64,000 nt of DNA from Elsinoe ampelina (GCA_010093995.1 ML992502.1:1047001-1111000); one strand, 5' to 3'. Shown: positions 2,506-27,778, numbered from the stretch's first letter. Notes: generated by a model not told the origin, from the sequence alone. Program-made: numbers and translations.

Positions 2506-3133
2506 GATGCTAGAAACGAGCGACTGACGGGATAGCAAAGTTGCCAAAGGAAATGTCTAAACTGTGTAGAAAGGGTCAAAGACGACGACAAGAAGGAGAA
2601 ACATGCTCCTTTTGAAGTGGGATCATGCTTGGGGATTTCTCAGCACCGAAGCACTTACGGTAGACTTCACCAATAGTCGGTAGAGGCGTCTGCAGATTGG
2701 TGAGAAGATCCGGTGCATTGCGCGTGCAAAAGGAGGCGAAAAACAGCCATAAGCCACCGGCGGTGGGTGAAGTGAAACATCGATGCACTCTGGAAGGTGT
2801 CGTGCCTGCCAAGTCAGTACGTTTTGCGCTCACCATACCTCGCTTCCCCCTACCAGGGCGCTGGAAGACCCGACAGTGAGATAAGGGTCTCGCGGCTTCG
2901 TGAACCAGTTGACTTGAGGCTGGCTGAAGGTAGCGCTAAGGGGGTAAGTCGACCAGAGTTTACGCTGAAGAACGAAGAATGGGAACCCCAAGAGGTGCAT
3001 CCAGAACCCCTTTTGGACGCGCACAGTCCTCCCACGGCGCGTGGCAGCACGGATTTGAGCGCTGCCAATTCCCACCTTGCCACTCTAGTCGACCTTTGCT
3101 GCGCCGACGACTCCCCTTCGACGGTTGATAATT

Positions 3134-6100: not shown

Positions 6101-8150
6101 TAGCTAAGAGACATTAGAGCCTTAGTATAGAGAGTAATCTAACAATTAATAATTAAAGCTATAATAACTAGAAAGCAAAAGGGATAAGATTAGAAGGATA
6201 AATAAGCAGGGGAAATGCGTTTTTATAATAGTAATTACCGCGGTAGGTCGCCGAGTCGTTAGTGTAATTCACTTAGCAATTCTAGTAGCCTTCTCCCTCT
6301 AAACATGTTAAAATTTGTCCGATGGCGTAAAAGACTCTAGCTAATTATCTTCGTGCACGTACGGCCTTATTAATTTAGTTAGGAGAGGCTTAGCTCCTAT
6401 AGTAACATAAAATCGAGCCTAGTTATAGAGAAGCTAATATATAGCTATATAAACTTTGTTACTATTGTCGAAGATAGTATAACTATTAAAATTGGTAAAT
6501 CCTCTAGCTATAAGTATAGTTTTACACTACTAAAGAGTATTAGCTAGCAGATATTCGTTAGGATCTAGAAATTTATTAATCTATAATTCGGCAGCAATTT
6601 ATACTATAATTTATATACTAAAATTTTATAAGTTTATCTAGTACTCTTCGATTAGTAGTAGCAGTACTTTAACTCTAGAGTAAACTCCTCTACGGCGCTC
6701 TAGATAGCTATAATTTAGCTCTAGCACTCTAGAGACTGTCTATAGCCTCCTCCTTGTCTAATTCTAGATAGCTCTATAATTGTAGGTCTAGGTAAAGGTC
6801 TCTACCTCTTATTAAATAATTAGTATATAGACGGCAAGGAAGGTAACTCTATTAGGCAAGGAGCTTACTATAAATCCTTAATCGGCTATAAGATTAGTAA
6901 AGTAAGCTCTCTAAGGATCTAGCTACTTCGCCTACTAACCCTAGTATATCTTAATCTACTAGTTTAAACAAGAGGTGCTATACTAGAAGTAATTCTCGAA
7001 GTGTAAGAGGGCTAAGTAATTACCTCTAGGTAGCCGGATAGCTTAACTTAGTTCGTAATAGAGGTTAGCGACTTAGATAGTCTCTATACTACGATCTATA
7101 ATAAGTTAGTATAGTATTATACTACTAGCTGTAATTGCTGCTAGGTATTAGACTACTACGGATCGTTAAGTATGTCTAGAGATACTATAGTAGATCCAGA
7201 TAACCTGTCGTAACTACGTATCGATTGCTCTATATATCTATAGCCCCTAATACTCAAATTTGTAATAAGTATCTATATGCTATATAAAATCTAGACTAGT
7301 AGGATAATTAACTAGCTAGTCGACTCGAAGGCGTTGTCTACAATGCTTAAAGTCCTCTAGATAAAGGAAACAAGATATAGTAGTTATATAGTAACTACGT
7401 GTAGTATTAGCAATTCTCTCGGCAATTCTGCCCCCTTAAATTACACTTATATTCCGACAAGATTATACTACTACCTTATATAGGTATATATTATACTTCG
7501 TCTATATGCCTTAATATTGCCTTACTTGTACTTATACTATAATACCTCGAGCATTGTAGTATCTCTATACTCCTTATTGCTCTTGCTTAACTCTATCTAC
7601 TTCTAGAGACCTATATTATAGTAGATACATTAGAGGCCTTTAAGGCTAAGTTCGTAGCTGTCCTCTTAGAGGAGCTCGAGTATATAGCTATCTATAATAC
7701 AGTAGTCGAAGAAGAGCTACTAGATACGCTCTTATAGCTTAGGGGTGTTATTAGCCTTAGGGCAAGCTAATACTCCCTAATCCTTTAAGCGTCTTACTAG
7801 AGTAATATAGCTTATTATAATACTATACTCTTAAAGGATCTTAACTATGTTGTCTCTAGTATAGCGCTCTAAGGTTATCTAGTCGGTAATACTCTCTTGC
7901 TAGCTATCGATGTTAATCCCTAGTTAAGGCATTATTTATTCGAGCGGAGGAAAAGTTTAAAGAGTAATTACACAAGGATAGTTATAGTTATAATTATAAA
8001 AATTGAAGAAAATGATAGCGCTAATAGTTCTCTACCACTTACTGTTAATCCGATAATTTAATAATCAGTGTTAGTAAAGTTGGCCATTTTAGGAAGGATA
8101 ATAATCCTTATTGAGAAGTGGAGTTGGAAGAGTTTTGATACAAGGGTCAC
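3134..8150. mobile_element. RIP-inactivated 5.0-kb TIR DNA transposon with an integrase-like DDE transposase relic
   Basis: Perfect 21-bp TIRs GTGACCCTTGTATCAAAACTC (3134-3154 and 8130-8150). AATT flanks both ends (3130-3133, 8151-8154). The interior is AT-rich and TpA-enriched. Confidence 0.9.
6269..7932 (-). pseudogene. RIP-degraded transposase: N-terminal HTH (Clr5-like) plus retroviral-integrase/IS3-IS481-like DDE core
   Basis: Reversing C>T/G>A changes gives MP.PGIDID...TLVRRLKDWG...GPDFVWHVD(7271-3)...WGLQIYGAIDAWSRQVIWIY...QYL...TD(7094-6)RGVET...YGTS.LNQ.IE(6950-2)...EYLPADTLQWC. Many TAG/TAA stops. Boundaries are approximate. Confidence 0.75.
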
Positions 8151-8689: not shown

Positions 8690-9838
8690 TCACCACAGCC
8701 TATTGAATCGATCCAAATAGACCAGATCGTCGCTGTCGAAGACGTCAAACCTGATGTATCTTGAGCGCTCCGGAACTCTGAGAATCTCAATCGCCAGCTC
8801 ATCGAAGGCTGACAAAGGTGGCTGACTCAGTAAAGTGTTGTATTGGCTGAAGATCCTCCATGGGTCGTTGGCATTGGCAATGGCGCGGAACGTCACCCCA
8901 TTTCTTTGGGAAGCCATCGAGGTGAGGGCGAGAAGCTGCTCAATGTCCAAGAAACTAGGGCTGGCTTCTTCGTAGGAGACCGCAGGCGTCGTCAAAGTGA
9001 TAACCTTCATTATAGCAATTAGGAAGTTCACATTGGATGAAGGGGTGTTCGCTTCTGTCGCGACTGCCTTCAAGGACCTCAGCGCCTGTTGCATCATGAG
9101 ATGGGGCAAAGCGAAGGCAGTCGTGACATTCCGGGCCTGCGTCTGACTATCTCCGTCAACGATCCGCTGCCGAAGCTCGACGTCTGTGGCGCGAAGGAAG
9201 CGAGCGACCTGTTCGTGCTGTAGAATCGACGCTCGGAGGACCCCCGTGACATCGTCAGGGCGCAATACATTGGCTTCTTGCGTTTGCGGGTAATTTTTCC
9301 AGACGATCGAACATGGTCCACTGGGTGGGCAGCCAGGCTTACCAGTACCAGTGGCAATTGTGAACGATTCGTCTCCACGAGTGAGCCAGTCCGAAGGCAC
9401 CCCGAAGTCCATTGCCATGGAATTCTCGAAGGCTACTTCGTTGGTCAATGTCCAATTGGTGACGTTGCCGTACTGAATGGTGTCCCGACGCGGGCAAACG
9501 ATCGTCGTATTTCCAGTGTCGCCCCATGTACATGACCAGTGTTGACTCCCAAGTCTTTGAAAGTAGCTGGAAATTCTTTCGCCGACAACGTTGCGGAGTG
9601 CCAGACCATATCTTTCATTGATTTGGTCTTCGTAGGTTGCCAGCAAACGTCGGTACTCGGCAACATTCTGACTGTAGGAATCGGCCATAACTTTGATGAG
9701 TGAGGTGTCGAGACATTCAGGGGTTAGGACGTTGACTTGGGCATTCCAGATCTGTTGGAAGCTGTCGTGTGGCCATTGGCAGCTAGCGGAAACATATGCA
9801 AGAAGCATTGAGCTCGCAAGAAGGGCTTTAAGATCCAT
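8690..9838 (-). CDS. Secreted 382-aa protein resembling the C-terminal helical domain of subgroup C GH18/GH71 proteins
   Basis: Signal peptide MDLKALLASSMLLAYVSA. Pattern C..Y..LL..Y....Y...V...I..YF...C, WTLT..F...DFGVPSDW and LP.LMMQQAL.SL...NFLIAIMKVITLTTPAV. TATAAA on the minus strand near 9898-9905. Confidence 0.7.
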   Translation of the reverse strand: MDLKALLASSMLLAYVSASCQWPHDSFQQIWNAQVNVLTPECLDTSLIKVMADSYSQNVAEYRRLLATYEDQINERYGLALRNVVGERISSYFQRLGSQHWSCTWGDTGNTTIVCPRRDTIQYGNVTNWTLTNEVAFENSMAMDFGVPSDWLTRGDESFTIATGTGKPGCPPSGPCSIVWKNYPQTQEANVLRPDDVTGVLRASILQHEQVARFLRATDVELRQRIVDGDSQTQARNVTTAFALPHLMMQQALRSLKAVATEANTPSSNVNFLIAIMKVITLTTPAVSYEEASPSFLDIEQLLALTSMASQRNGVTFRAIANANDPWRIFSQYNTLLSQPPLSAFDELAIEILRVPERSRYIRFDVFDSDDLVYLDRFNRLW

Positions 9839-11403
9839 GATAGTACTGAGCGGAAATTGAATGTACCAATATCCAGTATATGAGAAGGGAAAACCGGCTT
9901 TATATGTAGCGCCGTCAGCTACTGTCCCAATATGAGTGAACAGCTCAAGCGCTGCGTGTGACAGCGCCTCGGCACCACAGCTCGTTCCCCCTCATGGCCG
10001 GTGAAGACTTTGCCATGGTAGCGAGGCGACGCTTTCCTCCCGTCTCAAGCTGAAGTGGAGTTTAGCTACCAATTGCATCTCCAAGCAAAGTCTGGATGAT
10101 CCGGCGGACAGTGACCACGACCTTGCACAACTGGGCAGGGTCTGATAGTCTGCCTGGATGCTGTTTCCACCAGTTATGCTTCAACGATTGCTCTATAGCC
10201 GACATTGTCTGATGCCGAGCGCAGCTGAGCTACCTCAATAGATTGGCCAAGATTTGTCAAATGTAAGCGCTCTGCGCCGCACGAACAATCGACCGGTCTA
10301 TGGTCTCCAGGCGCGATTGAAGCCAAGGACACTAGCGGAGGAGGGGTGAAGTAGTATCGCATAAAGCTCGGCAGCATTGGCTGGGGCTATCATGACAGCT
10401 GACCATGGTCGAAAATACCACCAACGTTCTCGCGCACGGCCATAGTACCCACGGTATGTTTGACCGCCCCGCCAGCTTGACCGGATGGACAAGACGTCCT
10501 GCCGGATCTAGCGGGACCAGTTTGATGCGCACTCAATGGATGTGCTTGGCTGTCTTTATCAAGAAGGGTCGTGCTTGATCGCCGCCGAACGCTTGGTGGG
10601 GATTTCAGCTCCATACCGGTGAGGATCTCAGCTCTATACCGGTGAAAGGTGGGTCCGCCGTGGTGAAGTGTTATCTGTACGCGACCTCGGAACCGGTCAT
10701 CCTATTGAACACGTATGCGAATGTGGACCTCGCGCGAGATGAACATTTACCAGACCGGTTGCGTAGCAAGTAAGGGTGCTCGGTGCTAATGCCCACCTTG
10801 CCACTCCGGTCAACCTTTGCTGCGCCGACGACTCTGTCTCTAGATTTTCTCAGCACTAGACTTCCACTACCAGACGCCATTAGAACGTGGTCCAACCTTG
10901 AGATATTGTGTGGTGGTAGTAGGCGGTGGCATCAGATGTTGATGGATAGGAGCATGGAGCGTCATTTACCGAGGGCTTCTGAAGTCCGATATCGGTCACA
11001 CCACGGCAGTTGTCTCAACGTCGCTCCATTGTTTTGTACCACAAGCTCGATATCAGTGATAGAGAAGTCGATGCGAGTCCGAATATCAGCCCCAAGATGT
11101 CTTATCAGGATGGCACCGACGTTTCGGCTCGTTTAGCAATCCCTTTCCCGAGCTGATACAATCTTTTCTCACATGAGATGTTCCATACTGACTCGACCGA
11201 GAATCGCATGATCTGCACCAGCAAGCTTCAGATGACCACTGCGATCTCAGCTTGGGAAGAAGCAATGCAGCCAGTCATCGCAATTTGACTTGGACTCTTG
11301 CAAGACTACGATTCCAGTATGACCATATTGGCAACGTATCTACGGGAGATGAAAGATATGAATTCTACAAAGTTCGTACGACATACGCCCCCTTCCATCC
11401 CGT

Positions 11404-14400
11404 TCACACACCTGCAGGCTGGGGAGCAGCAGGCTGTGGAGCAGGTCCTCGGTAGTTGTATGGTGGTGCCTGTCCACCATAGTAAGGATCATAGGTCAGT
11501 AATGCGAATCCAGGATCTTTAGGCGCAAGATCGCTTGGCCAGCAGCGATTGATATTCAAGCCCGCATTAGCCGGTGCCTGGGGATAGCTGGACCAGTAGA
11601 ACTGTGGTCTCTTGGACATGGTCACAGCTACAAAGGTCTGTGTCGTCAAATGTTGCTTGACATCGTCCTTCTGTTGAGCTGTGACTCGCTTATTGGCTGG
11701 TACAGCGTTGACCATCTTCGTGAAGTCGTCATTAGACATGGCGTTGGTATCGAACATTGGGTGGAAGCATTTACCGCGAAGGTAGCTACCCGCACCCTCA
11801 TTCATTCCTCCCTCGATGTATCGGACCAGTTGACCTTTGGAGTTCTTTCCGCTTTGCTCGAGGGCTTCGAATCCTTGATAGAGCAACATTGCGGGTGGCC
11901 ACTCGTCTCTCTGACACCTCAGCGGATGTGGTTTGGGTGTCCAGCCTTGCCCGTTATGCTGCCAGCTCCACGTGGACGTCGCCCCAGCTGGCACTCGGTC
12001 GGCCATGCTGGTGGTGGCTGCGTCGACCGGGCAGTCTAGTGTCTTCCAGTGTGGGTTCACACTAGCCGCCGAGCTGTAGTGCCAGCAAGCCTGGGACCAT
12101 TTCGGCCGGCACGAGTGACCAATTGCTGTAGGTTCGGCATTGGCCGGCCAGCCCAATGATGTAATGATCATGTCTGTAGCGTGTAGTGTCTCGTCTTTGC
12201 AGCTTTGTCTTCGTAGAGTGTGTCCACCACCCATGCGTCGGGTCGACTGACCCGGTCTGACGGTGCATTTTTTCTTGGGTTTCTTCTTATCAGTCCCACC
12301 ATTATTGTTGCCGCTGCCGTTACCACTGCTGTTATCCTTCTCACTGCGCTTCTTGCTACGATCTGTTGGATTGCCACGATCGCCCTTTTTACCACTACCC
12401 TTTTTGATGTTCTGAGGAGGTTTGAAACGAGTAACTCCATCTGCAACACTGCTAAGGATGTCGAAAACTTGGCGCATCTCGGCAGGCACAAGAGACGTGT
12501 CGCCGCATGGGCTCAGCCACCACTCGAATGCGCCTTGGGGATCGTTGTCCCCATCGTAAGCGTAGGCTGCGAGTTGAGCTGCCGTGGTGGCCATCTCTGT
12601 GGCAATGAGTCAGCTCGCGTGTCTCCGATATTTGCACCATCATACCTAAGCCAGCATCGAGTACCTTCCCGGGACCGGGGATAAATTCCAGACCAATGTC
12701 GAGCACCAGTTTGAGAGCTGACATGATGGCGTAACATCCGATCTAGCAGGACTTGTTAGTATACTTCGGCAATGCTCTCACGAACGACATACCTGAGCGA
12801 TGATAGGAATAGCCTCCAGAAATGCAGAAGCCAGCTCGTTGATTAACCAGCTGTCACATATGCACTTGCCGTCAGCCACCCTACCACGAATGGTAGGCTC
12901 GCTGACCCATGGGATTTGATTGCCCGGAGCGTTGGGCCACCATCCAAGACAGCCGTAATTCGTGATTAGATCTTGGGATTTGGCCTCCTCAACGATGTCT
13001 TTGCAAAAGTTGTAGCATTGCAGAGCACCATTCTGTCTGTTCCTCCTGTCTTCGTAGATGATACAACCTTCGTTATTCTTTCGCCTAGCTTCGTATGTGT
13101 CAAAGTAATTGGGCTCCTCGCCGACTTGTAAGGGCAGATCATCCCACTGAGGGACCTCCGGACAGACGTCTGTAGGGCAGTCGTAGTATTTGCAAGCGAA
13201 TTTGCAAAGGCGCTCAATCTCAGGCACATTTCCATCCTCTGCTTGGACATCTACGCCGCTCCGCTCCGGTGGAAGTTCGAGAACTGGTCCAGTCTCGATG
13301 CAAAAGCAAAGGCTTTCTGGACATACCCCGTAAGAGCAGGAAAAGGCGCAAAGATCACCAGTATTCAATGTAGAATCTTCGCCTTGTATGCAACCCTCTG
13401 CTCCTGTGTCGGGCCGCTTAGACGGTCGCGATGAGTCGTCAGGTCCAAATGCTTGTAGATCCACGGCCCAGTCAATGCTCCCACCAAAGTTGAACCCTTT
13501 GAAATATTCACGTCGGGTATCTTTGGTGGTCGGTGTCATGTAACTGACATAGTCGCCTAAACATAGTCATCAGCGAGATTGCCAAGTGTGGTAGCATTCA
13601 GGATTTCCACCCACCTTTGTAGAGCATGATGTCTGAATTGGACGCTGCATCGTGGAAAGTGCTCACGCCTGATTGAGTGCGTGCAAGCTCGGTAATCTCG
13701 GCATATCCGAGATACCCTCCTGTCTTTGTGCACCTTCCTGGCCGCGCATCGGAAATCTCTCGAGATCCAGTGAAGTCGCACATAGGCCCCCAGCAGCCGT
13801 CACGCGCCATGTGGAACGATCTGCCATAACTGGCTTCACCTACAAAAACCTGGTAGTTTGGCACACCAGCCTTTACAACTGCAATGAGCTTAGTATTACG
13901 CATACATTGCGTTGACAGCGGAGGCAACTCACTCATTCCCAAGGCATTCCTTGTTTCTGTAAGATTCACTACACTTTATTAGATTTGAAGAAGTATAAAC
14001 AGGTGTTGGCATACCATGACTGCGAATACATTTACCAGAGGGGCAAGAGTCGAATGCATTAGGGTTGCCGTAATCCCATTGGCCATGTAGGTCGTATGTC
14101 ATATAGACAATGTAATCAACAACGGTACCGATCTGAGCGATGGGAAAGTTTTTGAGATACCAGTATGAAGCGGGTGCTGCAATGGAGGTCGATTTGCCAG
14201 GGGCCATTTGCCGCTTGAGTTCCTGGAGAAACCTGAAGTAGTAAATTCCGTCGAATCTATCGCCAATGGGGACACCATTGGCAAAGATGTCAGTTGCCTA
14301 TCGAAGTGTTAGATGTCTGCACGAGGTTGAAAGGGGCGCTGCTTACGCCGGGATATTCCCAGTCGATATCGATTCCATCGATGCCTTCGTTAGCAGCAAA

Positions 14401-16173
14401 TTGTGCTAGATTCTTCGCAAAAACCAGGTAGTTGTCGATAATGGCCGATCGAATGATCTTGTAGGTAGCTGGCTCGGTCGAATACGCCCAACCTCCGAAG
14501 GATACTATACGCTTCATTTCAGGAAGTCGCTTGAAATCGTTCCATTGATTGTGTGGGTCCTTTATGATCGGCTTCCAGGTATTCGGATCAATGTCTGCAA
14601 AGCCCCAGTGCATGTGTGTATAAGTCCCATCTGTATTGGCATTCTTGGCAGAGAGGTAGAGGCATTCTCGATCGAAGTTCCATGATTCGTAATAACCGAT
14701 ACGTCCAAACGATGGTGGTGGAGGTCCATTGACTTTGAGCTCGACGCCACAATTAGAGACGCAAGTGCTCGCGGCACCGGGTAGCTTCGAGCCAGGTCCG
14801 CCTCCTTCAGGAGCGTTTATATTACAATGAGCAGGGAACACCCCGCAGAAGCCCCAATTACTACAGCAGGCTTTGATGGGGCATTCGTTGAGGTTTGCAA
14901 GGGAGAAAGATCCTCCCGCAGGTCTTGGCGTTCCCGGTACTGTTGGCCCACACTCAGTCCCCTGTTGTGCCGGTGGTAAGGGGACGTAGCCGGATGAGAT
15001 GCACATGCTGTTGCCAACCAGGATGTCCTTACACTCGGTCCATGCCCAAGTACGTCCTTTGTTCCACTGTTCGATACTAGCAACAGTGATTCCGTAAAGT
15101 CGAGCGATGGCGTCACAGGTGTCACCATTCTTGATAATATGCGTTGCACAGACCCCATCAGACCCAGGCACCGGCACAGCTCGCTTCGTAAGAGGACCGA
15201 CTGTTCCGAAAACTGAATCGCCTCCCACTGCAGAGGTTGTTGAATTAGAATGCGTCGTGGTGTTTGAGGACAAGATTGGGAAGAGTTGGACATCAGGAAT
15301 GTCATCTCCGCGACGTAGATCGCCCTGGATGGCGCATGCTCCTTGATGCCAAGTGACCGCAGCTCTCTGGACAGCGGCAAGATCGTCTCCAGTGGTATCA
15401 AGCACGATGCCAAAATGGTTACCGAATGACAGTCCTGATGCACAGTACTCCGCAACAGTGTGATTGGTGACTATGCCCTCGGTCTGGATGCGGTTCCTGA
15501 ATGCGCCAAGTGCTGAGTCCACAGAACTCTTCCCGACGTAGTCGCCAATCGCAAGACCAGCGATAACACCTTTGTTGTAGGCAAAGACGAATCTTTCGTC
15601 ACAGTTGTCTGGCTCCTCGAAAAAGGCCTGTATCCCATCCAAAAGTGGCATGATGGCCTCAACATTGGTAGCGACGTCACCAAATTTGGCATACCTCAGT
15701 GTCGTCTCTTGTGATGTACCCCTGCTCGAACAGGCAGAAGGCAACTGATAGTCTTGAGGGAACAGATCCGCAGCCTTCTTCGGATTGTCGACTGGCACGA
15801 GCATCGTCGGGATTCCGCCAGTAGCGTTCTGCAGGCCTCTAGCAGCATCATCGCTCTGGCCTGTGAGAGAACAAGCTCGAATCAATGCGTTGTTCCCAGC
15901 ATCGCTGATTGGTACTGTTACGGAGAATTGCAACAGCAAGGGTTTTTCGCAGCGGTGTAGCCTATCTACGGACGTGTACGGGATCCAACTGTGTATGTTG
16001 GCGAGATCTGAACATGGCAGAGGACAGGCATGTTGCTCCGGGTTGTAGACATCGGGGTCTGCGAAGGGAACAGTTCCGTTGTCGACTGGCAGTACCACAC
16101 GATTACCATCGAGATCGATAGCGGAATGCACGAGACCTGGTAGTAAGAAGGATGGTATATGAGAGAGCTTCAT
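11404..16173 (-). CDS. Killer-toxin-like subgroup C chitinase (~1487 aa): SP, N-domain, KR site, LysM, CBM18, GH18, Cys-rich region, hydrophobic helices, basic patch, NucA/NucB-like nuclease domain
   Basis: Exons 16173-14347, 14297-14015, 13968-13933, 13878-13615, 13556-12793, 12742-12646, 12596-11404. All introns are GT-AG; total 4464 nt, in frame. LysM GDTCDAIARLYGIT, hevein CCSNWGFCG, GH18 SFGGW and DGIDIDWEYP, YMTYDLHGQW, C-terminal RDEWPPAM...VRYI...NEGAGS. Confidence 0.92.
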
Positions 16174-18930
16174 GGTGCAAAGAATGTACTTTGGACAAGA
16201 AAGGGGGACAGGAGTGACGCGAGCAAGTGACTTTGCCTGGACGACAACTCGTATAAATTATCAAGGGAACTGCACTTTACCACTCCATCTGTACCCCATG
16301 AAGAAATGCAATCATCCAGGAGGTCCCACCAGCACCTGCTCGATTGAACCCTCCTGGGCGGGCAATGGTTCAAACTCGTGTCCACCACTGTTCACAGCTT
16401 CCGACCAGGTACAGCAGAGATTTTCGAAACGAGGGTTCCGCACTGAACTTCGGCCCCTCATGTCGGTGGAGATCTCACCGGAAGACAGTGTATTGATTAA
16501 GGGTGCCGACCTGACTTTTTTCAGGCAGGACCGGTGAAGAAGAGAAGCGATGTAACCGAGCTGAATGTTGACTTGTGTGTGGGGAGGGAAAGAGATTTAT
16601 TACTGCCTGATCCACCAAGGTTAGGTGGATTCTCACTATATAAATACTTAACCTGATAAACTAAGAGATAACTAAATTGACAGAACTCCTAAGTTTTAAC
16701 AGAATAAGACAATAACTGTCTAAATTAATCATGAATTGGTATAACTGTTGATAAGTGCTTAGTTTAGCCTTAGGTGCACTAAATTAGGGTCCTTCTTAGC
16801 ACTATAGCTCTTGCCGAGGTTAACACACCCCTTTACTAAATAGCTATAAGTCTATTATAGCTAGTTAGTGGACTACTAACTCGAGGGATAGCTATTGTAA
16901 GAAGGCCTTATACCTCCCTAGAGGAAGTGACTTAGTAAGTCTATCTACTAGTGTATCTACTAAGAGAGTCTAGTCTATAGAGATAGAGCCTCCTAGAGTG
17001 ATCTCTTGCCTTAGCTAGTAATAGTGGATATCTATATAGCGTAGATGTATGTTAAGCTTCTTAATTAGATTAGTAATAAGGCTAATAGTTTACTAGTTGT
17101 TATACTAAATACTAACATTCCTTAGTGGATAGATAGTAGCTATTAGCCTCCTCTACTATATAGCTTGCTTAGTAGTCTCTACAAGAGTAAGTAGTTTAGC
17201 TTCTATACTAGAAGTAGTAATAGTTAGCTACTTTATAGCCTTCTAATCTATAGAGCCTTAGAATAGCTTAAATAGATACCCCTAAAGGCTCTTTCTTAAA
17301 GGGTAACTTCTAAAGCTAGCATCTAATAAGGCTTAGAAGATTAGTAGTAGTATTAAGCTATTAAAGGTAAGAGCTAGATCTCTAGTCTTATAGAGATACT
17401 AGATTACTCTATTTACTATCCTTTAATAAGTTAGTAAAGGGTTTATTAGATACTCTAACAACCTAGAAGTAGCAAAGGTAACATTAGGCCTAGTAATAAC
17501 AGCTGCAAAATTAATAGATTCTATCTTCTGCTAATATAGATAGATCTCCTATAGTAATACTTAGCCTTTAGAGGGCTAGAGTATTTCAACTAGAAGTAGT
17601 AATAAGACTAGCCTTATTAGTTCTATAATAAACTTGCTATACATCTACTGGATATACTAAGCTTAACTAAGCTATAGCTTCTTAGTTGGCCTATCCCTTA
17701 TAATTTAGATAGCTAGGAACTAGCTTAGATTCCCTAGAACCTTTATCTTATACTTAGCATATAGAGCTATAATAATAGCATTAGCCTTGCCCTTGTGCTT
17801 CTTAAGGTACATAATAGTGATATTATCTACAAAGAAGAAGATTATTACCTTAGGGGTTAGCTAGAGGCATAGAGCCTTAGGGGCCTAAGTAAATCTAAGA
17901 TTCTTTAGTATAGTAGTAAATTCTATATACTAGAGAGCTAGTACTTGTTTAAGGCTATAGAGTGCCTTCTTTAGTAGGAGGATTGTATTAGATAATGCTA
18001 TACTAGGATAGTCCTTTATAAGCACCTCTAGTATAAGCTTAAACCTAGGTAGGATAGTGTAGTAGGTTGTCTTATTAATAGGACTATTAACATAAGCATT
18101 AACAATATCTATCTAGATAGCCTCTATATCCTTGTAAGCAAGGAGGGCTATAAGTATTCTAAAAATCTTAGTAGCTAATATAGCTATATAAGTCTCTAAA
18201 TCTATAGATTAAAGATTACCTCTTATATAAAGCCTTACCTTGTGTTTAATAACTTCTCCTTTGTTATTAGTCTTATATATAAAGACCTAGGTTAGTAGCA
18301 CTAGCTTCTCTATAGCTTAAGATGTAAGTATAATAGTCTAAGTGTCTTTTAAATAGAGAGTAAGTAATTCTACCTTTATTGCTTATTAGAATTACTCCCT
18401 ATAAGGATAAGCTTATAGCTCCCTAATATTAGCTAGTAGTAGAGGTAGATTATCCCTTAGTTCTAGCTTTAGCTAGATTAGCTTTATTAATAGATAAGCA
18501 TTAAAAGCTTAATGATATCTAGGAGCCTCCTAAGGCTATATAAGACTAGTAATATAGGCCTACCTTCTTAGTTTTCTAGTCCTTCTTATAGTAAGGATAT
18601 ACTTAGGCAATAGGTTAGCTAACCTTATAGTAATTCTTCTTCTAGGCTGTTTAGGCTCCTTAGTTACCCCTTTAGCTAGGGCTTCTATCTTACTTCTTAT
18701 AGTTTTAGCTTTAGATAGAGGTAAAGGCTATATAGCTATTAAGGGTAGAGAGGCTAGAGCATTATAGAACTACTCTAGTGATGTAGCCTCCTAGATCTAA
18801 GCTAGGTTTAGCTCTAGGGTCTATAACTGTAATAGTAGACTATAATTATCTAGTAGAGGTAATAGAGCCTATTAAGCCTATAACTGTAATAATAAACTAT
18901 AATTATTTAGTTCCTTAGTTAGAATCTACT

Positions 18931-19013
18931 AAACTAGATTCTAAGCTGAATTCTAAACTAGATTCTAAACTAGATTCTAAACTAGATTCTAAACTGGATT
19001 CTAAACTAGATTC
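18931..19013. repeat. 12-bp tandem repeat (AAACTAGATTCT) x~7 in the Copia IN-RT linker
   Basis: Seen directly; the second Copia copy has ~4 units near 50744-50790. Confidence 0.85.
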
Positions 19014-20279
19014 TGTAGTATAGATAGGCCTTTAGTTACCCCTTTAGTTTAAGGTATATTCTCCTTAACTTCCTATAGTAGTCTTAGTAGATTAAGTAGT
19101 CTAATAGACTAAGGCTAAGGCTACTCCTCTAGCTTGTAGAACTAAGTCTTATTAAATCTAACATCCCTTGTTCTAATAACCTTCTTTAAGGCTAGTATAA
19201 AGATCCTAAATATGTTAGTTAAGTTATATCTAACTAGATAAATAATGTATGCTCTTAGTATAAGCTTATTACTACTTATAACATAATAATCTAGTGTATA
19301 GGCCTTATAACTAATTAGCCTAAGATAGGAGATTAATAGAGGACATCTATAAACTAGCTTAAAGAGAGTCTTCTAGTTAAGCTTCTTAAGTAGAGTTCTA
19401 TTTATTAGATAGGCTACTAATCTATATAGTTTAGAGTATAGTTCCCTTAGAAGATTAGTAAAGATAGCTACTACCCTTACTCTCCTTAATAGTATAGACC
19501 CTATCCTTTTACTATAACTATTCTATGCTAGAGTATATAGAGTAGATAGCTCTCTTTAAATACCTTTACTATCTAGGAAGATAGTAAATCTAAGGCTAAA
19601 AGCCCCTTTATTATTACTCCTAACAAATCTAACCTTAAAGCTAAGATTGCTTTTAATATAAGTAATTATCTTAATATAGATTTTATTAATCTTATATCTA
19701 TAAGCATAACTGCTTACAAGGTAATAGTTAGTAGCTCTATAGGCAAAATAGCTTATATACCTTGCCTTATTATAGCTAGTAAACCTATTAATAATAATGT
19801 TAAAGGTGATCCTTTTAAAGAGCTTAGTTATAATAATCTTAGTGTTAGAGCTCCTTAAGATAAGCTTCTAAGTATTTAATAGCTTATAAGTCTAATATAG
19901 TAACCTAAGGTAGATTAGCTAAACTAAGTTAGGCTTAGTTAAAGTTAGTTTACTACTAACTATAGTAGTTAGGAGGTAATTAATAGACTCTATACTTAGA
20001 TAGCCTATAACTTTATACTAGAATTAATTAGTCCTTGTTATAACTAAGGTAAATACTAATAGATAAGGATCTCTAGTGCCTCCTATAGCTATAGTAATAG
20101 TATAAGGAGCTTTAGAGTTATTCTCTACTATATATTAATTGTGCTTTAGAGTTACTAAGAAGAGTACTTTCCCTTTATAATTAATCTCTATAGTTTAAGT
20201 GTTCTAGTGGACTTTACCCTTTAGGAATCTCCTAAGGCTAACTAGATTAGTTATTATTAATAGTACATAAGCTACCTAT

Positions 20280-20384
20280 NNNNNNNNNNNNNNNNNNNNN
20301 NNNNNNNNNNNNNNNNNNNNNNNNNNNNNNNNNNNNNNNNNNNNNNNNNNNNNNNNNNNNNNNNNNNNNNNNNNNNNNNNNNNN
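20280..20384. other. Assembly gap (105 N) inside the Copia gag-protease region
   Basis: Run of N. Confidence 1.
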
Positions 20385-21741
20385 ATATATCTAGGCTCCC
20401 TAGTAGAACTAGGCTTCTCTTATAAGGAGTCCTTAGTAGCTATAGGGAATGCTATTACTCCCTTACTAGCCTTTGTGCTACTATATAGCTTATAAAGTTT
20501 GTAAAACTGTCTAAACTTAGTAATTAACTTAAGTATTAATAGCAGGGTTAGTAAATCTAGATTAATAAGATATTTATTAGCAAATACTAGTTTAGTCCTT
20601 AAGATAGAGAGTAAGAAGTCTCTCTATAGCCTTAAGCCTTAAGCTTCTAGTAGGTTGTAATTCCTAGCCTTATCTATAACCTCTTCCTATTACTAAAGCT
20701 AATAGTCTATGTTCTGTGATAATAGACTAGAGAGTTGTCTCCTCTAGAGAGCTTTAACTTCTAACTAGATTATAGTATTAGATAGTACAAATCTGTTCTT
20801 TAATGCTCTAAGGATAGCCTATAGATAGAAATCTCCCTCTAGTTAGATAACTATAAGAACTTATAGTGCAATTAATAACTAAATAAGGCTAGCTAGATCT
20901 GCTAAGACCTTATGCTGTTTGTTATGCTAAGCTTGCTCCTCCTTATATATCTAGAAGAGTGCTAAGAAGTTAAAATCTAATATATCTAGCCTCTAAGGCT
21001 TAGGGAGCTCTTCTAGCTTAACTATCTCCTAGGGATTAATAATGTACTAGATCTTAGTGTTTAAAGCTCTAGTCTTAATAATATATAGCTAGCTAGCCTA
21101 TTTAGCTGATGTAGCAAGAATAATAGGTGTTCTAGCTATTAGTGTGTTAGTATCTATAGTTGTTTATCTCTTTGTTAACACCTAAATCCTATAGTAGTAG
21201 ATAAGGTAGTACTTAACAGATTCTAGTGCTTAAAAAGCGAGATGATAGAGAATGAACTAATAAATCAAGTAGAGAAGCTACTAAATAATATACTTATACA
21301 GGGGTAGTTATACCGGGCTTATAACTATTGACTTGTATATAGGGAGGGAAAGAGATTTATTACTACCTAATCCACTAAGGTTAGGTGGATTCTCACTATA
21401 TAAATACTTAACCTAATAAACTAAGAGATAACTAAATTAACAGAACTTCTAAGTTTTAACAGAATAAGACAATAACTGTCTAAATTGATCATGAATTGGT
21501 GTAACCGTTGATAAGTGCTCAGTTCAGCCTTGGGTGCACTGAATCAGGGTCCTTCTTGGCACTACAGCTCTTGCCGAGGTTGACACTGAAGATGGTGGAG
21601 CTAAGGGCGGCGTGGCAAATTCTTGGCTATATAATAAGCGGGCATCAACCGAGGCTAATATTTCACGCCTTCACACTTCTTCCTTCAGCGGGACTCTTCA
21701 TTCTGCCAACCTCCTACACGGCACGAACTCAAACATTCGAG

Positions 21742-22518
21742 ATGCCTGATCTGGAAGACGTTTCTTACTCGCGCGAAGAGACCATTGAAGCCGTCCGGGG
21801 GTTCTACCGGTTCTTGGCTGACATGTATCTCGACCCATCTGCTATTGCAGAACCCCCTCCTGAAGGCTGGCCGGAGATCACTACATGCCCGGAAGGTTTC
21901 GACAAGACTGAGGAAGTCATGGCACTTCTGAAACATCTTCCCTACCTGAAGGGAGAACCGCAAGCTGGCCCGTATACGCTCATGGCGGATTGGCAATGGT
22001 TGCTGTCGACTATCGACGATGCTGCTAGACTCAGAGATATCTCGTGGGGCCCGGAGCTTTACGAAAAGGAAGTCCCGCCCCATTGCATCGGTCTCACCGA
22101 AGCCTACGCCAACATGCATACCTTCCTCCTTGATACAGAGCTCGGCATAATCTACTGGACCTACATGTACAGCGCACCGTTGGATAATGCTACTAAGGAA
22201 CGAATCAGCCATGACCCAGAAGCTTACGCACCGGACGAGGAGGTGGAGTGGAGATCCGAATTTCCCGCTTTCGCCGTGACAGACCTGTTCGAGGCTTTGA
22301 AAGACCATTTCAGGCAGCTCAATTATGTACCCATCACTTCAGAGAAGATCTACGACATTTGGACCAAGTTTCCAAGCAGCCGCGATGGCATGGTGGAGAT
22401 GGTCCAGAGCATCTACCGGGAGCATGGCTGGCCTGATCTGACCACTTACCGGAAAGCAGATTGCATGGCTGCGATCAGCAGGGCAATGCAGGAACGCTAT
22501 CCGATGGATGCCGAGTAA
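21742..22518 (+). CDS. Uncharacterised acidic cytosolic 258-aa fungal protein (candidate immunity protein)
   Basis: MPDLEDVSYSREETIEAVRGFYRFLADMYL...EPPPEGWPEI...LLKHLPYL...FLLDTELGIIYW...YREHGWPD. No signal peptide. TATA-like TATATAA near 21628. The track's longer 21508 start lies inside the LTR. Confidence 0.8.
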   Translation: MPDLEDVSYSREETIEAVRGFYRFLADMYLDPSAIAEPPPEGWPEITTCPEGFDKTEEVMALLKHLPYLKGEPQAGPYTLMADWQWLLSTIDDAARLRDISWGPELYEKEVPPHCIGLTEAYANMHTFLLDTELGIIYWTYMYSAPLDNATKERISHDPEAYAPDEEVEWRSEFPAFAVTDLFEALKDHFRQLNYVPITSEKIYDIWTKFPSSRDGMVEMVQSIYREHGWPDLTTYRKADCMAAISRAMQERYPMDAE

Positions 22519-22785
22519 ATTGCACTATCCAGCTCTTGACATGAAGATCCCCTGCTCTCGAGGCCCTGTGGGGCCAAAAGTATCTAGCAACCGGTGAAGA
22601 GCTGAACAATGGATCATCGCTAGCTCCTTGGCAATCCCCTGTCCTTCTGCCATTTCCATACCCTCTCTTGGATTTATGGCAAGCTCGTACGGGCTGGTTT
22701 TCGAAGCGGACTTCTCTCTTCCTACGCTCACCTCTGCTCTATTGTAGTTTCATTCTACCAACGAGATCTGACTTTCGCAGCCATC

Positions 22786-23397
22786 ATGAAGGGTCGTGCC
22801 GTCTTCGCAATCGCCCTCAGCACGACTATGGCTCAACTTCATGCCACGCTGCTTCCGACAGAGGGGCCATTGATCACCAGAGATCCGTGGCAATGTGTCC
22901 TGGATAACATGACTTCCTACTTCCGACCTCCTCAACCAACAGGCAACCTGGCTACTGCGCTGGTGTCCTATGGAGGAGTACTTCTCGATGAGATCTGTCC
23001 ACCAGAACAGCCTATCTGTCCCTTTCCTGCCCAATCCAGATGGTGCGCCTTCACGGACGTCGCGCCTCGGACACTTCTCGCTGATTGGAGCTCCTACGGC
23101 AGCATGGCGAACGAGTGGATCGCCTCTCGAAGTTCGACGATGATCGAACTTGCGGTACAATGTCCGAACTACTGGTACAAAGCTATGAATCAGGTCCCAT
23201 TGGGCAAGAACCACCTGAACAGTACTATCACCTTTGCAGGCTGCTATGCAGAGGCTCAAACTACCAGCGTGCCGGACTCGCAGAGGCAGGCAGCACCTGC
23301 AACACCGGCATCGGGAATACAATCGGAGGAGCCTAGGGAAACAGGAAGTCTAGCTGTTCGTAGCTATCAAACCGACGGAGTTGTCGCTGGTCTCTGA
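22786..23397 (+). CDS. Secreted Cys-containing protein, GPI-anchor-like if the stop is read through (to 23430)
   Basis: Signal peptide, 6 Cys (DPWQC, CPFP..RWC, QCPNYW, FAGCY) and a Ser/Thr/Pro tail. The stop TGA-CTAG is followed in frame by LAGFMSMVYG*. Confidence 0.75.
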   Translation: MKGRAVFAIALSTTMAQLHATLLPTEGPLITRDPWQCVLDNMTSYFRPPQPTGNLATALVSYGGVLLDEICPPEQPICPFPAQSRWCAFTDVAPRTLLADWSSYGSMANEWIASRSSTMIELAVQCPNYWYKAMNQVPLGKNHLNSTITFAGCYAEAQTTSVPDSQRQAAPATPASGIQSEEPRETGSLAVRSYQTDGVVAGL

Positions 23398-24245
23398 CTA
23401 GCCGGCTTTATGTCCATGGTTTATGGGTAGAGGATATTGCGGAGAAAAACTACATGGCGGGCATGGCACAGATTGTTCACATTCATTATCTTCTGCTTAT
23501 CATCACAACGAAATACCTCTATACGATCGTGCAGCTGCCTAGTTTCTGCGCGCTCTTAGAATCTTGCTCTTTGCGATATTTCTACATCCTACCCGGTCGT
23601 CTCTACAGACTCGGAGCCAGTAAACGCACGGCCAAGCTTACACCCCTGTAGCACGGTCTTTGTGTTTCTGATCTGCGGTGGATCACCCAAGCCAGGGTTT
23701 GACCTGCTCACCGGTGAAGGTGTTGGGTCACACCGGTCCATGCCTTGGCGTGCCAACACTTCACCGAGATGCTACAGTCACTTCAGCTGAGCGGATTCAG
23801 CCTCACTAGCGGCACGAGTCTCTCTTAAGGTTGTATGTCTCACCGGATGCCTGGTTGCTAGGAACCAGGCGTCGAGGCACGTTATCGGACAATCTCATTT
23901 CCACGAAAGCTGGCTAACGATCTTGGCTTCTATACCATCAATATTGCTGCAACTCGACTGACCGGGAGCCCCACACCATTGACGGCCGGAGTGCCCCTTC
24001 AGGTGAGTCATTTTGAATTGATGCAGAGGTTATTGTGGATAACACAAACTATTGTTTAGCCAAGCTGGTCCTTCCTGCTTGGGTCAAGCATAGGGGTAAG
24101 GTACGGCCGACGTCGACACGACATGTCTTTTCAGCGACTATATCTCAAATGCGTTGCCCATGCGAGCGCCCTGTTGCATCCGGTTTCCGTATCGGCCAGA
24201 GTTTCTTTCTTTCATCTTTGTACTTCCATTAGATCATAACCTATC

Positions 24246-25634
24246 ATGGGGAACCTTATTCGATTGTTCGGCGTGGTAGCACTACTCAGTACCGTCGTTT
24301 CAGGGGCCCTCATGAGGCGAGACTGCGCCTTCACTATCTCTGCACAATCAGGTGATACGTGTGGGTCCCTTGCTACATCGTTTGGTATCTCTGTCAATGA
24401 ATTCATCAGCTACAACACTGGAGTCGATTGCACGCTTCCTTTGACAGCCAACAAGGAATACTGCATCCTGTGGTCAGGCGAAGCTCCTCCGATGCCTTCT
24501 TCGTCCTCGACAGCGACCACAGCGTCGAGCCAGTCATCCTCGCCCACAGCAGCGCCCACTGGACCAGCTCCGCCGTCACCTACACAAGCTGGTCTTGATT
24601 CTCAATGTATGATGTTCAATTGGTGGCATAGCGGAAATTCTGACTGGTGCCACAGGCCAAAGATTCCACCTCGCTACAGACGGGGATACTTGCCAAGGCA
24701 TCATTGACAAATATCGCACGTTCAGCTTGCAGCAATTGTAAGTTCCGAATTGTTGAATGCACCACAAATATTGATCCATTCGACAGCTACGCGTGGAATC
24801 CTGCCGTTGGCACTTCCTGCTCTGGTCTTTGGTTGGGCTATTACTACTGCATCGGAACGGCCAGTACCCCTACCTCCCCACCGTCAACGACTACAGTAGC
24901 GCCCACACCTACTCCATCGAACGGCTTTCCCTCAGTCAGTCCTTCCTGGCAAGACCTTCTACACAGAGTACTGATTCGTTTGTTAGCCCGTCCAACCCAA
25001 TATCATCAGCACCTGCAAGCGATTCTACCAGGTTCAGTCCGGCGACTTCTGCCAGAAGATCGTCGATCAATACCGGACCTTCACACTCTCTGACTTTTAC
25101 AATTGGAACCCCTCCGTGGGTAACACCTGCGCCTCACTCCAAGCTGGCTACTTCGTCTGCGTTGGCGTCGACGGCACGCCTACCAGCCCAAGTCCTACTA
25201 GCAACCCAATCCCTTCCCCGACCCAGACCGGCATCATCAAGACCTGCACCAAGTACGACCGCACCAACCCCGGCGCTTTCTGCGAAGCCTTCTCCAATCG
25301 AATCGGCATTTCTCTTCCACAGCTGTACGCCTGGAACTCTATCCTCGGCACTCGCGGGGAGAATTGCGCCAGAAATTTCCTACCAGAGACATATTACTGT
25401 ACCGGAGTGTCGGGCCCGCTGCCCGCGCCTGGACCGACTCAGGGGGGTATCGTGGATATTTGCACCGGCTATGTAATGGCTAATCCAGGCGGATCATGCC
25501 CGGTTTTCGCAAACAGAGTAGGCATAAGTCTGCAGCAGCTGTATGCGTGGAATCCGGTGTTGGGCCGGAATGGGGAGAATTGTCAGACGTCGTTCTGGGC
25601 AAATACCTGGTACTGTACCTCTGTGGCCGGGTAA
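24246..25634 (+). CDS. Secreted LysM effector-like protein with five fungal-type LysM domains (412 aa)
   Basis: Exons 24246-24606, 24656-24737, 24787-24934, 24987-25634 (1239 nt, in frame). Five C..GDxC..WNP..C..YC-type modules joined by P/T/S linkers; signal peptide present. Confidence 0.9.
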
Positions 25635-25894: not shown

Positions 25895-27043
25895 TTACAC
25901 TAACGAAGCGTACACCAATGCCATCGTCGCCGAGATATGATAAGTAAGACGGTAATCGATCTGAGTCGATGCCTTGAAGGGACCACTCCAGTTCAAGCCC
26001 AACATATTGTTCTTCGTATTGCGAGCATTGTTCCAAATACTATCCGCATTGTTCTTCAACAACTGCGGAATGCCTCCACCACCCACACTCGGCCTAGCCT
26101 TGTAGACCTCGTAGAAGCCACGCATCATGATACCCTTGAACATGCCCGTGTCGCCATTGCAGCTAAAGTCAGCATCGCAGTACTCCTGCGCAATACCGTT
26201 GACGATCATGCCGTATTGACCCGAGGCGGTCTTCTCGGCGATGGACTGTGCGATGTCGAGCCATTCTGCGTTGCCGGTGGCGTCAGCCATGGCCACCATG
26301 GCTGCCATCGCGGCACCTTCTTGGTAGGTGAGGAAGGCGTAGTTGTTGCTGCAGGTGTCTTGGCCATTGCGCTTCTGGAGACCGTCGCCTTGGATCAGGC
26401 CGTCGATGTACATGTCGGCCTTGAGTTCTTTCCAGGCGGCGCGGGCCTTGTTGAGGTAGTTGGCTTTCTGCTTGGGGGTGCGCTTGGCGAGGAGGGCTGC
26501 GGCCTCGATGTAGAGGGTTTGGGTGATGACGCTGCTACCGCGCGGGGTGCCGGGGTAGGCGTTGTTGAAGAGACCGCAGGCGTCCTTGTCGATGTCGGCG
26601 GCGATACGGGCGAACGTTCGTCGGGCGCTGACGAGGTATTGGTTGTTCTTGGTGACGTCGAAGACCTTGATCATGGCGACGGTCCACCAGAGACGGTCGT
26701 CGAAGTAGCTGGTGTAGGTGAAAGCCTTGTCGCTGTCGACTGCTTGGTCGCGCCAGGTGACGTTGAAGACACCTTGCTCGCCATCTGTGATCTGTCTCAA
26801 GAATTGGGAGTTGTCGCCCTCGCGTAGATCAGCGAGTAGAGTTACAGCTTGAGCGCAGTTCCACCATCCGATCGTCCATGCGGCTGGTGAGGGGGTTCTG
26901 TAGTACATCGGTTGCTGCATCTTCTTGACGGCAGTGTGTGCATTTTGACGGTACTGGTTGGCCCGGCGCTCCAAGGTAGGAGTGGCAGAAGTGCATTGTG
27001 AGAAGGCAAGACTGGCAAGGCCAGCCAATGCTGTGAAATACAT
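25895..27043 (-). CDS. Secreted GH76 alpha-1,6-mannanase/transglycosidase-like protein
   Basis: Signal peptide and KR-like ERR site; WWNCAQ, catalytic YFDD.LWW, TYQEG, FKGIMMR and GLNWSGP motifs. No GPI tail. Confidence 0.88.
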   Translation of the reverse strand: MYFTALAGLASLAFSQCTSATPTLERRANQYRQNAHTAVKKMQQPMYYRTPSPAAWTIGWWNCAQAVTLLADLREGDNSQFLRQITDGEQGVFNVTWRDQAVDSDKAFTYTSYFDDRLWWTVAMIKVFDVTKNNQYLVSARRTFARIAADIDKDACGLFNNAYPGTPRGSSVITQTLYIEAAALLAKRTPKQKANYLNKARAAWKELKADMYIDGLIQGDGLQKRNGQDTCSNNYAFLTYQEGAAMAAMVAMADATGNAEWLDIAQSIAEKTASGQYGMIVNGIAQEYCDADFSCNGDTGMFKGIMMRGFYEVYKARPSVGGGGIPQLLKNNADSIWNNARNTKNNMLGLNWSGPFKASTQIDYRLTYHISATMALVYASLV

Positions 27044-27778
27044 GATGGATGAGATATAGCCTGGAAATAATGTGTTGTGGGGGGCGTGAAAGGATATTGT
27101 TTACCGGATGTCCTTGACATTATATATAATCTCCTTCAAATCTTAGCCTGCTTCCAAGCATCAACGGTAGCTGAGGTGGAAATACGGTGACGCCGCATTC
27201 TTCCGCCCAGAAGACAGCACAACGGGGATCGCATGGTGATCAAACCTGGTCTAACGGATATGACATCGCTGATAGGGTGCTCTACTTCGCTGTTCTGGAG
27301 CGTAAAGACAAGACCGACTGTGAACTATTTGCGCCCAGCTGGGCTGGAGTTTGACCTACCTGCCAGACGTTGGGATGTTATATAACGGCTCGCCACAGCG
27401 GCCAGAAGTAGATGAGAGGAGGAAAAGATTGGCAGCAAACACGTGCGGAACATCATGCTGCCACTCTAGATGATGACATTGTGGTCTCCGGTGCAGACAC
27501 ATCGCAAACGCCTGCCGAGGAGATGACCGCATTGTGGATATATCAGTCTTCGATGTAGTCGGATGACCAGACCTCGATATCAAACAGCCAAGACGCGTCT
27601 GATACCGGGCTGTCAATAGGCCGCGGATCGCCTCCACCACGAAGTAGCGCAGTCAATAGTAGATGCGGGAGCATTAGACCGTGTTCGAGTGCAGTGGCGA
27701 GCCTTGTAACCAGGGTAAAAGACATTGGAGATTGAATTTGAGAACGGTTGATGTGTGAAACAGGACGCGTAATTTGCA

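Follow-up and report, generated by a model that had tools for sequence, protein, structure and literature searches.

This analysis concerns a window of 64,000 nucleotides from Elsinoe ampelina (GCA_010093995.1, ML992502.1:1047001-1111000), a fungus that we take to be a Dothideomycete, in which a gene for a secreted, killer-toxin-like chitinase ends in a tail predicted to be a NucB-type nuclease and is encoded head-to-head with an acidic protein predicted to adopt the SUKH (Smi1/Knr4-like) fold. Confrontation between fungi induces the subgroup C chitinases, whose likeness to the alpha/beta subunit of zymocin was remarked long ago, and to our knowledge the cargo of most of them is unclear. A conserved deoxyribonuclease (DNase) with intact predicted catalytic motifs in such a chitinase, together with a SUKH-fold neighbour, would provide subgroup C chitinases with a concrete, testable mechanism. 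In the reading favoured here, which we regard as evenly poised between right and wrong, a chitin-targeted killer-toxin-like chitinase carries a DNase within its own polypeptide and delivers it, and the SUKH protein acts as the inhibitor of that DNase within a conserved fungal conflict cluster. Positions are counted from the first letter of the window, and the features are collected in Table 1.

The chitinase and its nuclease-like tail

The chitinase gene comprises exons 16173-14347, 14297-14015, 13968-13933, 13878-13615, 13556-12793, 12742-12646, and 12596-11404 on the minus strand, which total 4464 nucleotides, or 1487 codons plus a stop, and are identical to the public E. ampelina model P0175. 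The encoded protein begins with a signal-like N-terminus and about 320 amino acids without an assigned domain, followed by LysM, CBM18, and GH18 modules, a Cys-rich region, a hydrophobic segment, a helical region, a basic linker, and the NucB-like nuclease. An earlier note on this DNA had read the gene as a LysM-CBM18-GH18 chitinase with a nuclease-like tip, and Pfam recognises LysM, Chitin_bind_1, and GH18, with no match after residue 836 of P0175. Judged by domains alone, this content (LysM plus GH18) fits a C-II chitinase. The Hce2 domain was not found at E up to 0.1 in eight related carrier proteins, including the chitinase of the window. The Kyte-Doolittle maximum of the protein, 1.7, lies at residues 1049-1061, within a segment that is kept in relatives with other carriers, and the dipeptide KR at residues 1173-1174 of the basic linker is a candidate processing site, as judged from sequence.

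The tail is part of the chitinase gene, and the fusion is real. Contigs from run X1 omit 12743-12792 and 13879-13932, intervals whose ends read CT..AC on the plus strand and hence GT..AG on the strand of the gene, and one contig goes directly from 12598 to the end of exon 6. Since these spliced joints mark the contigs as transcript-derived sequence, X1 itself carrying no RNA record, the last exon is joined to the rest of the chitinase gene. The same contigs have no cover over 14888-16197 and say nothing on the 5' exons. Additionally, the metagenome locus L036 carries the GH18 part and the tail in a single intron-free open frame of 1585 codons.

A model of the last exon, built with AlphaFold (AF2) on 48 tail relatives, reached a predicted local distance difference test score (pLDDT) above 90 over last-exon residues 110-390, with a poorly ordered helical N-terminal part and basic linker. 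The top two PDB rows returned by Foldseek for the tail were both NucB (5omt, probability 0.80, E 0.058), and the modelled tail superposes on the beta-beta-alpha-metal fold of that enzyme. According to the NucB structure paper, the essential motifs of NucB are DRDE, which contributes the metal-binding Asp93 and the general base Glu94, and DNRG, which contributes the metal ligand Asn117, while His53 positions Asp93. The fungal tail family displays the motifs C-x-R-D-E-[YWF]-P-P and N-x-G-A-G, in which the catalytic residues are kept almost throughout (Asp in 132 of 137 members, Glu in 136 of 137, Asn in 146 of 149), and which read QRDE and MNEG in the window. The His of a CxHYSS motif, kept in 125 of 134 tail-family members, is a candidate counterpart of His53.

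Sequence comparison alone gives a fainter trace of the same enzyme. A profile restricted to the core found NucB as its sole PDB match (two distinct sequences, E 1.2), aligned on the Asn motif, where HMMER paired GQlvRYlp..NqgAGs of the family with GasVRYVsssDNRGAGS of NucB. The commonest weak Pfam match of the tail relatives was PF14040 (NucA/NucB), found in 2 of the 48 members at E up to 1, with a best value of 0.054; the tail of the window itself matched nothing in Pfam even at E up to 10, and searches of PDB sequences with it were also empty. The predicted fold and the active-site motifs agree in identifying the tail as a NucB-type nuclease, which would endow the chitinase with DNase activity. 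The nuclease-like tip is borne out at this level, and in place of the zymocin-type transfer RNA nuclease (tRNase) that the earlier note cited as precedent stands a NucB-type DNase fold.

A search with the last exon of 1.84 billion representative proteins yielded 305 matches at E up to 0.001, the best 150 of which were examined; carriers with other tips may be among the remainder. By the common Cys-rich region that follows GH18, 53 long proteins were collected. The same tail is present on 45 of them, including proteins from Fusarium, Trichoderma, Colletotrichum, Epichloe, and Cordyceps, and the eight chitinases lacking it consist of six short models (601-1055 amino acids) and two proteins of 1372 amino acids. 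Among these chitinases the tail is conserved rather than polymorphic, with variation mainly in the N-terminal carrier, and the swapped C-terminal tips expected earlier did not emerge. The two 1372-residue proteins, P0222 and P0223 (a pair including Gaeumannomyces), align with the chitinase of the window through GH18 and continue into another C-terminal region of about 460 amino acids without the nuclease tail.

The tail is found on GH55, GH71, and enzyme-free carriers as well. The cassette formed by the Cys-rich region, hydrophobic segment, helical region, and GSGKKGD linker, together with the nuclease, stands behind the GH55-like glucanase P0039, behind unannotated N-terminal regions, and behind small secreted Cys-rich domains without any enzyme (P0097, P0109, P0147, P0158, P0103, and P0163, 580-770 amino acids). 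Several of these enzyme-free carriers bear an extra conserved C-terminal extension, SSRRLT...C.DR.C. The GH71 carrier P0124 of Fusarium decemcellulare keeps the Cys-rich, hydrophobic, and linker cassette and ends in a different tip of 131 amino acids (residues about 655-785), which matches ADP-ribosyl cyclase at E 0.0024, below the Pfam cut-off, and has no PDB sequence match. This protein is the single lead for tip exchange and, judging by its sequence, may carry a second kind of toxic tip; an N-region profile run over 54 loci containing the SUKH gene revealed no further cassettes with other tips.

The SUKH-fold neighbour and its linkage

The gene divergent from the chitinase encodes a protein that, as previously noted, appears cytosolic and acidic, having no N-terminal signal-like stretch and containing 48 Asp and Glu against 22 Lys and Arg residues; its isoelectric point (pI) is 4.46, compared with 8.98 for the basic nuclease domain. 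Its AF2 model (pLDDT 92.5) has top structural matches that all belong to SUKH proteins, including 11 of 11 entries listed on a second look, and the best of them is the core domain of Saccharomyces cerevisiae Knr4/Smi1 (PDB 5j1b). Sequence searches returned nothing comparable: the protein has no Pfam match at E up to 10, none of its 19 relatives matches a SUKH Pfam family at E up to 1, and its profile found nothing among PDB sequences. These 19 relatives, obtained by word search and including the protein itself, are scattered over four classes, and one UniRef record among them is named Knr4/Smi1-like.

In bacteria, SUKH genes beside HNH/His-Me nuclease toxins constitute a classic immunity arrangement (Zhang, Iyer, Aravind 2011; Zhang et al. 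2012). The adjacent immunity candidate proposed in the earlier note is strengthened by the predicted fold, which is that of the commonest bacterial nuclease-immunity superfamily. By analogy, the SUKH-fold protein may bind and inhibit the nuclease.

A metagenome scan with the alignment of the neighbour produced 54 loci, forming 38 groups at 90% identity. A piece of chitinase lies on the same contig as the SUKH gene in 21 loci (14 groups), and where at least 3 kb is available on both sides, a chitinase is near SUKH in 7 of 13 groups. The nuclease tail is present in all eight groups whose contig holds the 3' end of the chitinase. DUF7735, the family of another gene of the cluster, shares the SUKH contig in 18 loci (13 groups), and LysM genes recur as well, so that the linkage anticipated for other fungi is found for chitinase, SUKH, DUF7735, and LysM, the 8690-9838 gene being excluded from it. 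Gene order and orientation vary between loci, being divergent, as in the window, tandem, or convergent. The most distant SUKH protein, in L045 (26% identity), accompanies the most distant tail (28-30%) on another type of chitinase.

Some loci retain SUKH without an intact chitinase: L001 and L043 have only a short chitinase remnant, L013 and L021 hold SUKH and DUF7735 only, and L020 and L024 hold SUKH alone. Such loci fit orphan immunity genes, yet leave DUF7735 as a possible partner. In L020 (11333-13381), the orphan SUKH homologue lies 0.5 kb from a gene with a HET (heterokaryon incompatibility) domain.

Other genes, the upstream 9-mer, and the retroelement relic

With the insertion removed, all five adjacent genes of the proposed cluster were found where they had been placed. 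For the gene said to encode a five-LysM protein, about five LysM-like repeats were counted by eye, and Pfam recognises LysM in two pieces. P0216, a public Pseudogymnoascus model of 1901 amino acids, combines the nuclease tail with DUF7735, a PAN-like stretch, CBM18, and GH18. Adjacent genes have probably been merged in this model, which gives an independent sign that DUF7735 and chitinase lie side by side.

The 8690-9838 gene, formerly regarded as subunit-like, has lost that standing. Among 4061 candidates its protein matches nothing but itself, neither Pfam (E up to 10) nor the PDB sequences yield a match, the gene is absent from 54 of 54 related loci, and nothing marks it as a subunit. A precomputed PF26794 label was not reproduced by the Pfam scan, and a weak lead from Atlas points to DUF7872 at 0.85. 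No small secreted open reading frame (ORF) was seen between 9840 and 11400. Between this gene and the 3' end of the chitinase, contigs of three runs cover 10214-10926, which has no long ORF; in run X1 this stretch is joined with the 8690-9838 transcript in one 2.3-kb contig, and it could be a long 5' untranslated region or a separate transcript.

The upstream motif attributed to four of the genes is indeed there, as the exact 9-mer CCGGTGAAG. It has exactly four copies in the 64 kb, all on the plus strand and all intergenic, with none upstream of the SUKH gene. About 0.5 exact copies are expected in the window from length alone, and in 100 shuffles of the five upstream regions the mean number of 8-mers common to at least four regions was 0.02. 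With up to one mismatch, 21 sites occur in the window against 12.1 expected, a count reached in 2 of 100 shuffles. The 9-mer thereby offers a purely hypothetical, sequence-derived route to co-regulation of the cluster genes.

The insertion in the divergent promoter region, reported earlier as a Copia element, proved to be a relic of a long terminal repeat (LTR) retroelement, its Copia type being plausible and unproven. Its TpA/ApT index of repeat-induced point mutation (RIP) is 1.98, its (CpA+TpG)/(ApC+GpT) index is 0.38, and 1 of 17 ORF fragments scanned in it (19145-19372, minus strand) matches the retroviral-polymerase SH3 domain (SH3_retrovirus, E 8e-7).

The window as a whole is fungal DNA of normal composition broken up by three AT-rich blocks. 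In addition to the relic, two RIP-like blocks are located at 4000-8000 (TpA/ApT 1.87), which forms the left boundary of the cluster, and at 50000-54000 (1.80). Directly after the LysM gene lies a wall-related GH76 (alpha-1,6-mannanase-like) gene (25895-27100, minus strand), which has a match in 0 of the 54 related loci, and on the far side of the left-hand RIP block, at a distance of 6 kb from the cluster, is a gene with a Glyco_hydro_cc catalytic core (952-2556, minus strand, E 3e-57). The remainder consists of ordinary metabolic and housekeeping genes.

Table 1. Features of the window, with positions, strand, and the basis of each assignment
Feature	Position	Strand	Basis
Killer-toxin-like chitinase gene, secreted, 1487 amino acids, 7 exons	11404..16173	-	Splice sites read, Pfam domains, spliced contigs
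LysM module, P0175 residues 345-372	15058..15141	-	Pfam PF01476, E 1.5e-6
CBM18 chitin-binding module, P0175 residues 428-451	14821..14892	-	Pfam PF00187, E 8e-7
GH18 catalytic domain, P0175 residues 492-836, 4 introns within, DGIDIDWE intact	13459..14700	-	Pfam PF00704, E 6e-36; motif read
Most hydrophobic segment, about residues 1049-1085, end of exon 5 and exon 6	12646..12840	-	Kyte-Doolittle, alignments
Helical region (WWLSPCG motif) and disordered basic linker (GSGKKGD motif)	12268..12596	-	AF2 pLDDT 44-73, alignment
Predicted NucB-like beta-beta-alpha-metal endonuclease domain, with N-terminal beta-sheet part and C-terminal NPCWP..DPGFALL extension	11425..12267	-	
Predicted nuclease catalytic codons, Asp-Glu	11902-11907	-	
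Predicted nuclease catalytic codon, Asn	11800-11802	-	
Acidic cytosolic SUKH-fold (Smi1/Knr4-like) protein gene, 258 amino acids, candidate nuclease inhibitor/immunity protein	21742..22518	+	AF2 pLDDT, structural matches, linkage, pI
Secreted DUF7735 protein gene (family label "infection structure specific protein"), recurrent cluster member	22786..23397	+	Pfam E 6e-51, Atlas clusters scoring 0.93-0.94, 18/54 related loci
Secreted LysM-only protein gene, about five LysM repeats, introns	24246..25634	+	Pfam LysM in two pieces (best stretches), repeats read, LysM matches in related loci
Secreted orphan protein gene, 382 amino acids, transcribed, with 9-mer, not a conserved cluster member	8690..9838	-	Only itself found, 0/54 loci, contigs cover gene
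CCGGTGAAG copy, 160 nt upstream of 8690-9838 gene	9998..10006	+	
CCGGTGAAG copy, 358 nt upstream of chitinase start	16531..16539	+	
CCGGTGAAG copy, 187 nt upstream of DUF7735 gene	22591..22599	+	
CCGGTGAAG copy, 527 nt upstream of LysM gene	23711..23719	+	
RIP-mutated LTR-retroelement relic splitting divergent chitinase/SUKH promoter region	16600..21400	.	GC 0.30-0.39, RIP indices, SH3_retrovirus match

Readings of the cluster and comparison with known systems

In the proposed mechanism, the LysM, CBM18, and GH18 modules would attach to the chitin wall of a rival fungus and breach it, the conserved Cys-rich and hydrophobic/helical cassette and the dibasic linker would serve processing and membrane passage, and the basic nuclease domain, predicted to be a non-specific endonuclease, would, once inside the cell, cut the target DNA. 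Within the producer, the acidic SUKH-fold protein encoded head-to-head would bind and block the nuclease in the cytosol, and the secreted LysM-only and DUF7735 proteins would shield the producer's own wall. If true, this would be a eukaryotic use of the nuclease-plus-SUKH logic of bacterial conflict systems, and should the domain be toxic and the SUKH protein protective, the pair would open a new approach to mycoparasitism, to biocontrol, and to the competition between fungi that live with plants.

Several observations weigh against this mechanism. The tail falls below the Pfam gathering threshold for PF14040, and membership by score fails. The SUKH family looks much rarer than the tail (19 proteins and 54 loci against 305 representative tail matches), and the well-known chitinases with this tail in Fusarium, Trichoderma, and Colletotrichum may lack such a neighbour. 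Immunity may also be unnecessary where the nuclease is produced in the secretory pathway. Among the well-flanked SUKH groups, 6 of 13 have no chitinase nearby, and SUKH stands about as often beside DUF7735, including in L001, L013, and L021, which lack an intact chitinase, so that DUF7735 could be its partner. The 9-mer CCGGTGAAG is not enriched in the clusters of other species, its 4 matches in the 54 related loci being about the number expected by chance. Finally, the Spearman correlation of 0.875 between nuclease and SUKH identities over 28 pairs, which bears on the co-variation of neighbour and tip raised earlier, is confounded by shared descent. Overall, the earlier interpretation is partly supported, being right on the nuclease and on a plausible immunity gene and wrong on tip polymorphism and on the first gene.

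A broader version of the proposed mechanism, tentative and on balance rather doubtful, would make the family a fungal counterpart of bacterial polymorphic toxin systems. A portable delivery cassette (Cys-rich region, hydrophobic helix, helical region, and dibasic linker) would combine with exchangeable heads that target the wall (a GH18 chitinase, a GH55-like glucanase, a GH71 mutanase, or an enzyme-free small Cys-rich domain) and exchangeable toxic tips, usually a NucB-type DNase and, in at least one Fusarium protein, an ADP-ribosyl-cyclase-like domain. Cytosolic immunity proteins of the SUKH fold, which also persist as orphan genes, would guard both producers and bystanders.

The main rival, itself unlikely, is an extracellular digestive or matrix-degrading enzyme. 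The fusion would then serve nutrition or colonisation and would never enter a target; its substrates, all outside cells, would be wall chitin and the extracellular DNA left by dead or lysed fungi or present in biofilm matrix or host traps, and SUKH would be either a barstar-like safety inhibitor of unexported enzyme or unrelated to the nuclease. NucB itself is a secreted, biofilm-degrading, non-specific DNase, the occurrence of the same tail on other wall hydrolases (GH55-like, GH71) suits a lytic cocktail, and the tail is conserved rather than diversifying. However, the nuclease always comes after the conserved hydrophobic and helical cassette, enzyme-free carriers included, and an extracellular DNase would have no use for such a cassette. 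A conflict system is also the better fit for the recurrence of the SUKH neighbour and for the SUKH copies that have no chitinase.

Less probable still is a cell-wall remodelling cluster, in which the chitinase, the LysM protein, the DUF7735 wall protein, and the adjacent GH76 enzyme act on the fungus's own wall under a SUKH protein that serves as a Knr4-like regulator of wall synthesis and inhibits no nuclease. This would leave a nuclease with conserved catalytic residues unexplained; moreover, the neighbour family is patchy and rare, unlike a housekeeping regulator, and, even where gene order has changed, the neighbour follows the chitinase that bears the nuclease, down to 26% identity.

The reading with the least left to it, now very improbable, is a canonical zymocin-like cluster, whose toxin would be a separate small secreted gamma-subunit-like protein (DUF7735 or the 8690-9838 product), disulfide-linked to the chitinase, with SUKH as its immunity factor: some loci that lack an intact chitinase do keep SUKH and DUF7735 together, and Pezizomycotina clusters comprising a C-II chitinase, a small secreted gamma-toxin, LysM-only genes, and sometimes an Imm gene are described by Heneghan, Salzberg and Wolfe, where further unidentified ORFs are proposed as immunity genes, but the gamma-toxin features given there, Glu at mature position 8 and Cys near the C-terminus, are seen in neither protein (with the signal cleavage site guessed by eye), the protein clusters that contain DUF7735 are large and widespread and carry an infection-structure label, and the 8690-9838 gene has no counterpart in the related loci.

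Term searches of two later papers by the same group found no fused nuclease: the mBio mGem names as a fused effector only a cytotoxic Hce2-type domain, which it calls unrelated to gamma-toxins, and in the GBE paper "fused" and "fusion" refer to plasmids and polymerases only. One paper lists a DNase_NucA_NucB domain for a GH55 protein and does not discuss it. In the literature searched, no paper linking a NucA/NucB-type domain to subgroup C chitinases or to a fungal SUKH neighbour was found, and the supplementary tables of Heneghan et al. may already list such clusters or DUF7735 as a toxin group. That survey reports that the Dothideomycetes and Leotiomycetes were without clusters; killer-toxin-like clusters would be extended by the one described here to fungal classes where the survey had none.

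The cluster resembles the zymocin-like clusters in its secreted chitinase with LysM, CBM18, and GH18, putatively of the C-II type, residing in a small, mobile, patchy cluster with a LysM-only gene and candidate immunity ORFs, and in a proposed role in antagonism of fungus against fungus. It differs in that the window has no recognisable gamma-toxin gene, and in that its nuclease lies within the chitinase itself and has the predicted fold of a NucB DNase rather than being an anticodon nuclease. Its immunity candidate has a predicted SUKH fold.

With bacterial polymorphic toxin systems, the cluster shares a large secreted multidomain protein with a terminal His-Me-finger-type nuclease, a small adjoining SUKH gene, and stand-alone SUKH copies elsewhere. 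In contrast to them, it is eukaryotic, with introns, secretion through the endoplasmic reticulum, and wall-hydrolase carriers, and its tip is conserved, with variation mainly N-terminal and gene orientation variable.

At the level of single proteins, the predicted nuclease has in common with Bacillus licheniformis NucB (5omt, 6ejs) the beta-beta-alpha-metal core, the DRDE and (D/E)N(R)G motifs, and a Glu in place of the usual His as general base. The fungal domain is distinguished by its 21% identity, its length of about 280 amino acids, to which an extra beta-sheet part at the N-terminus and a conserved extension at the C-terminus contribute, its fusion to a carrier of 1200 amino acids, and its position below the Pfam threshold. 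The SUKH-fold neighbour, in turn, finds its closest structural likeness in the Knr4/Smi1 core, which is, like the predicted neighbour, a cytosolic fungal protein.

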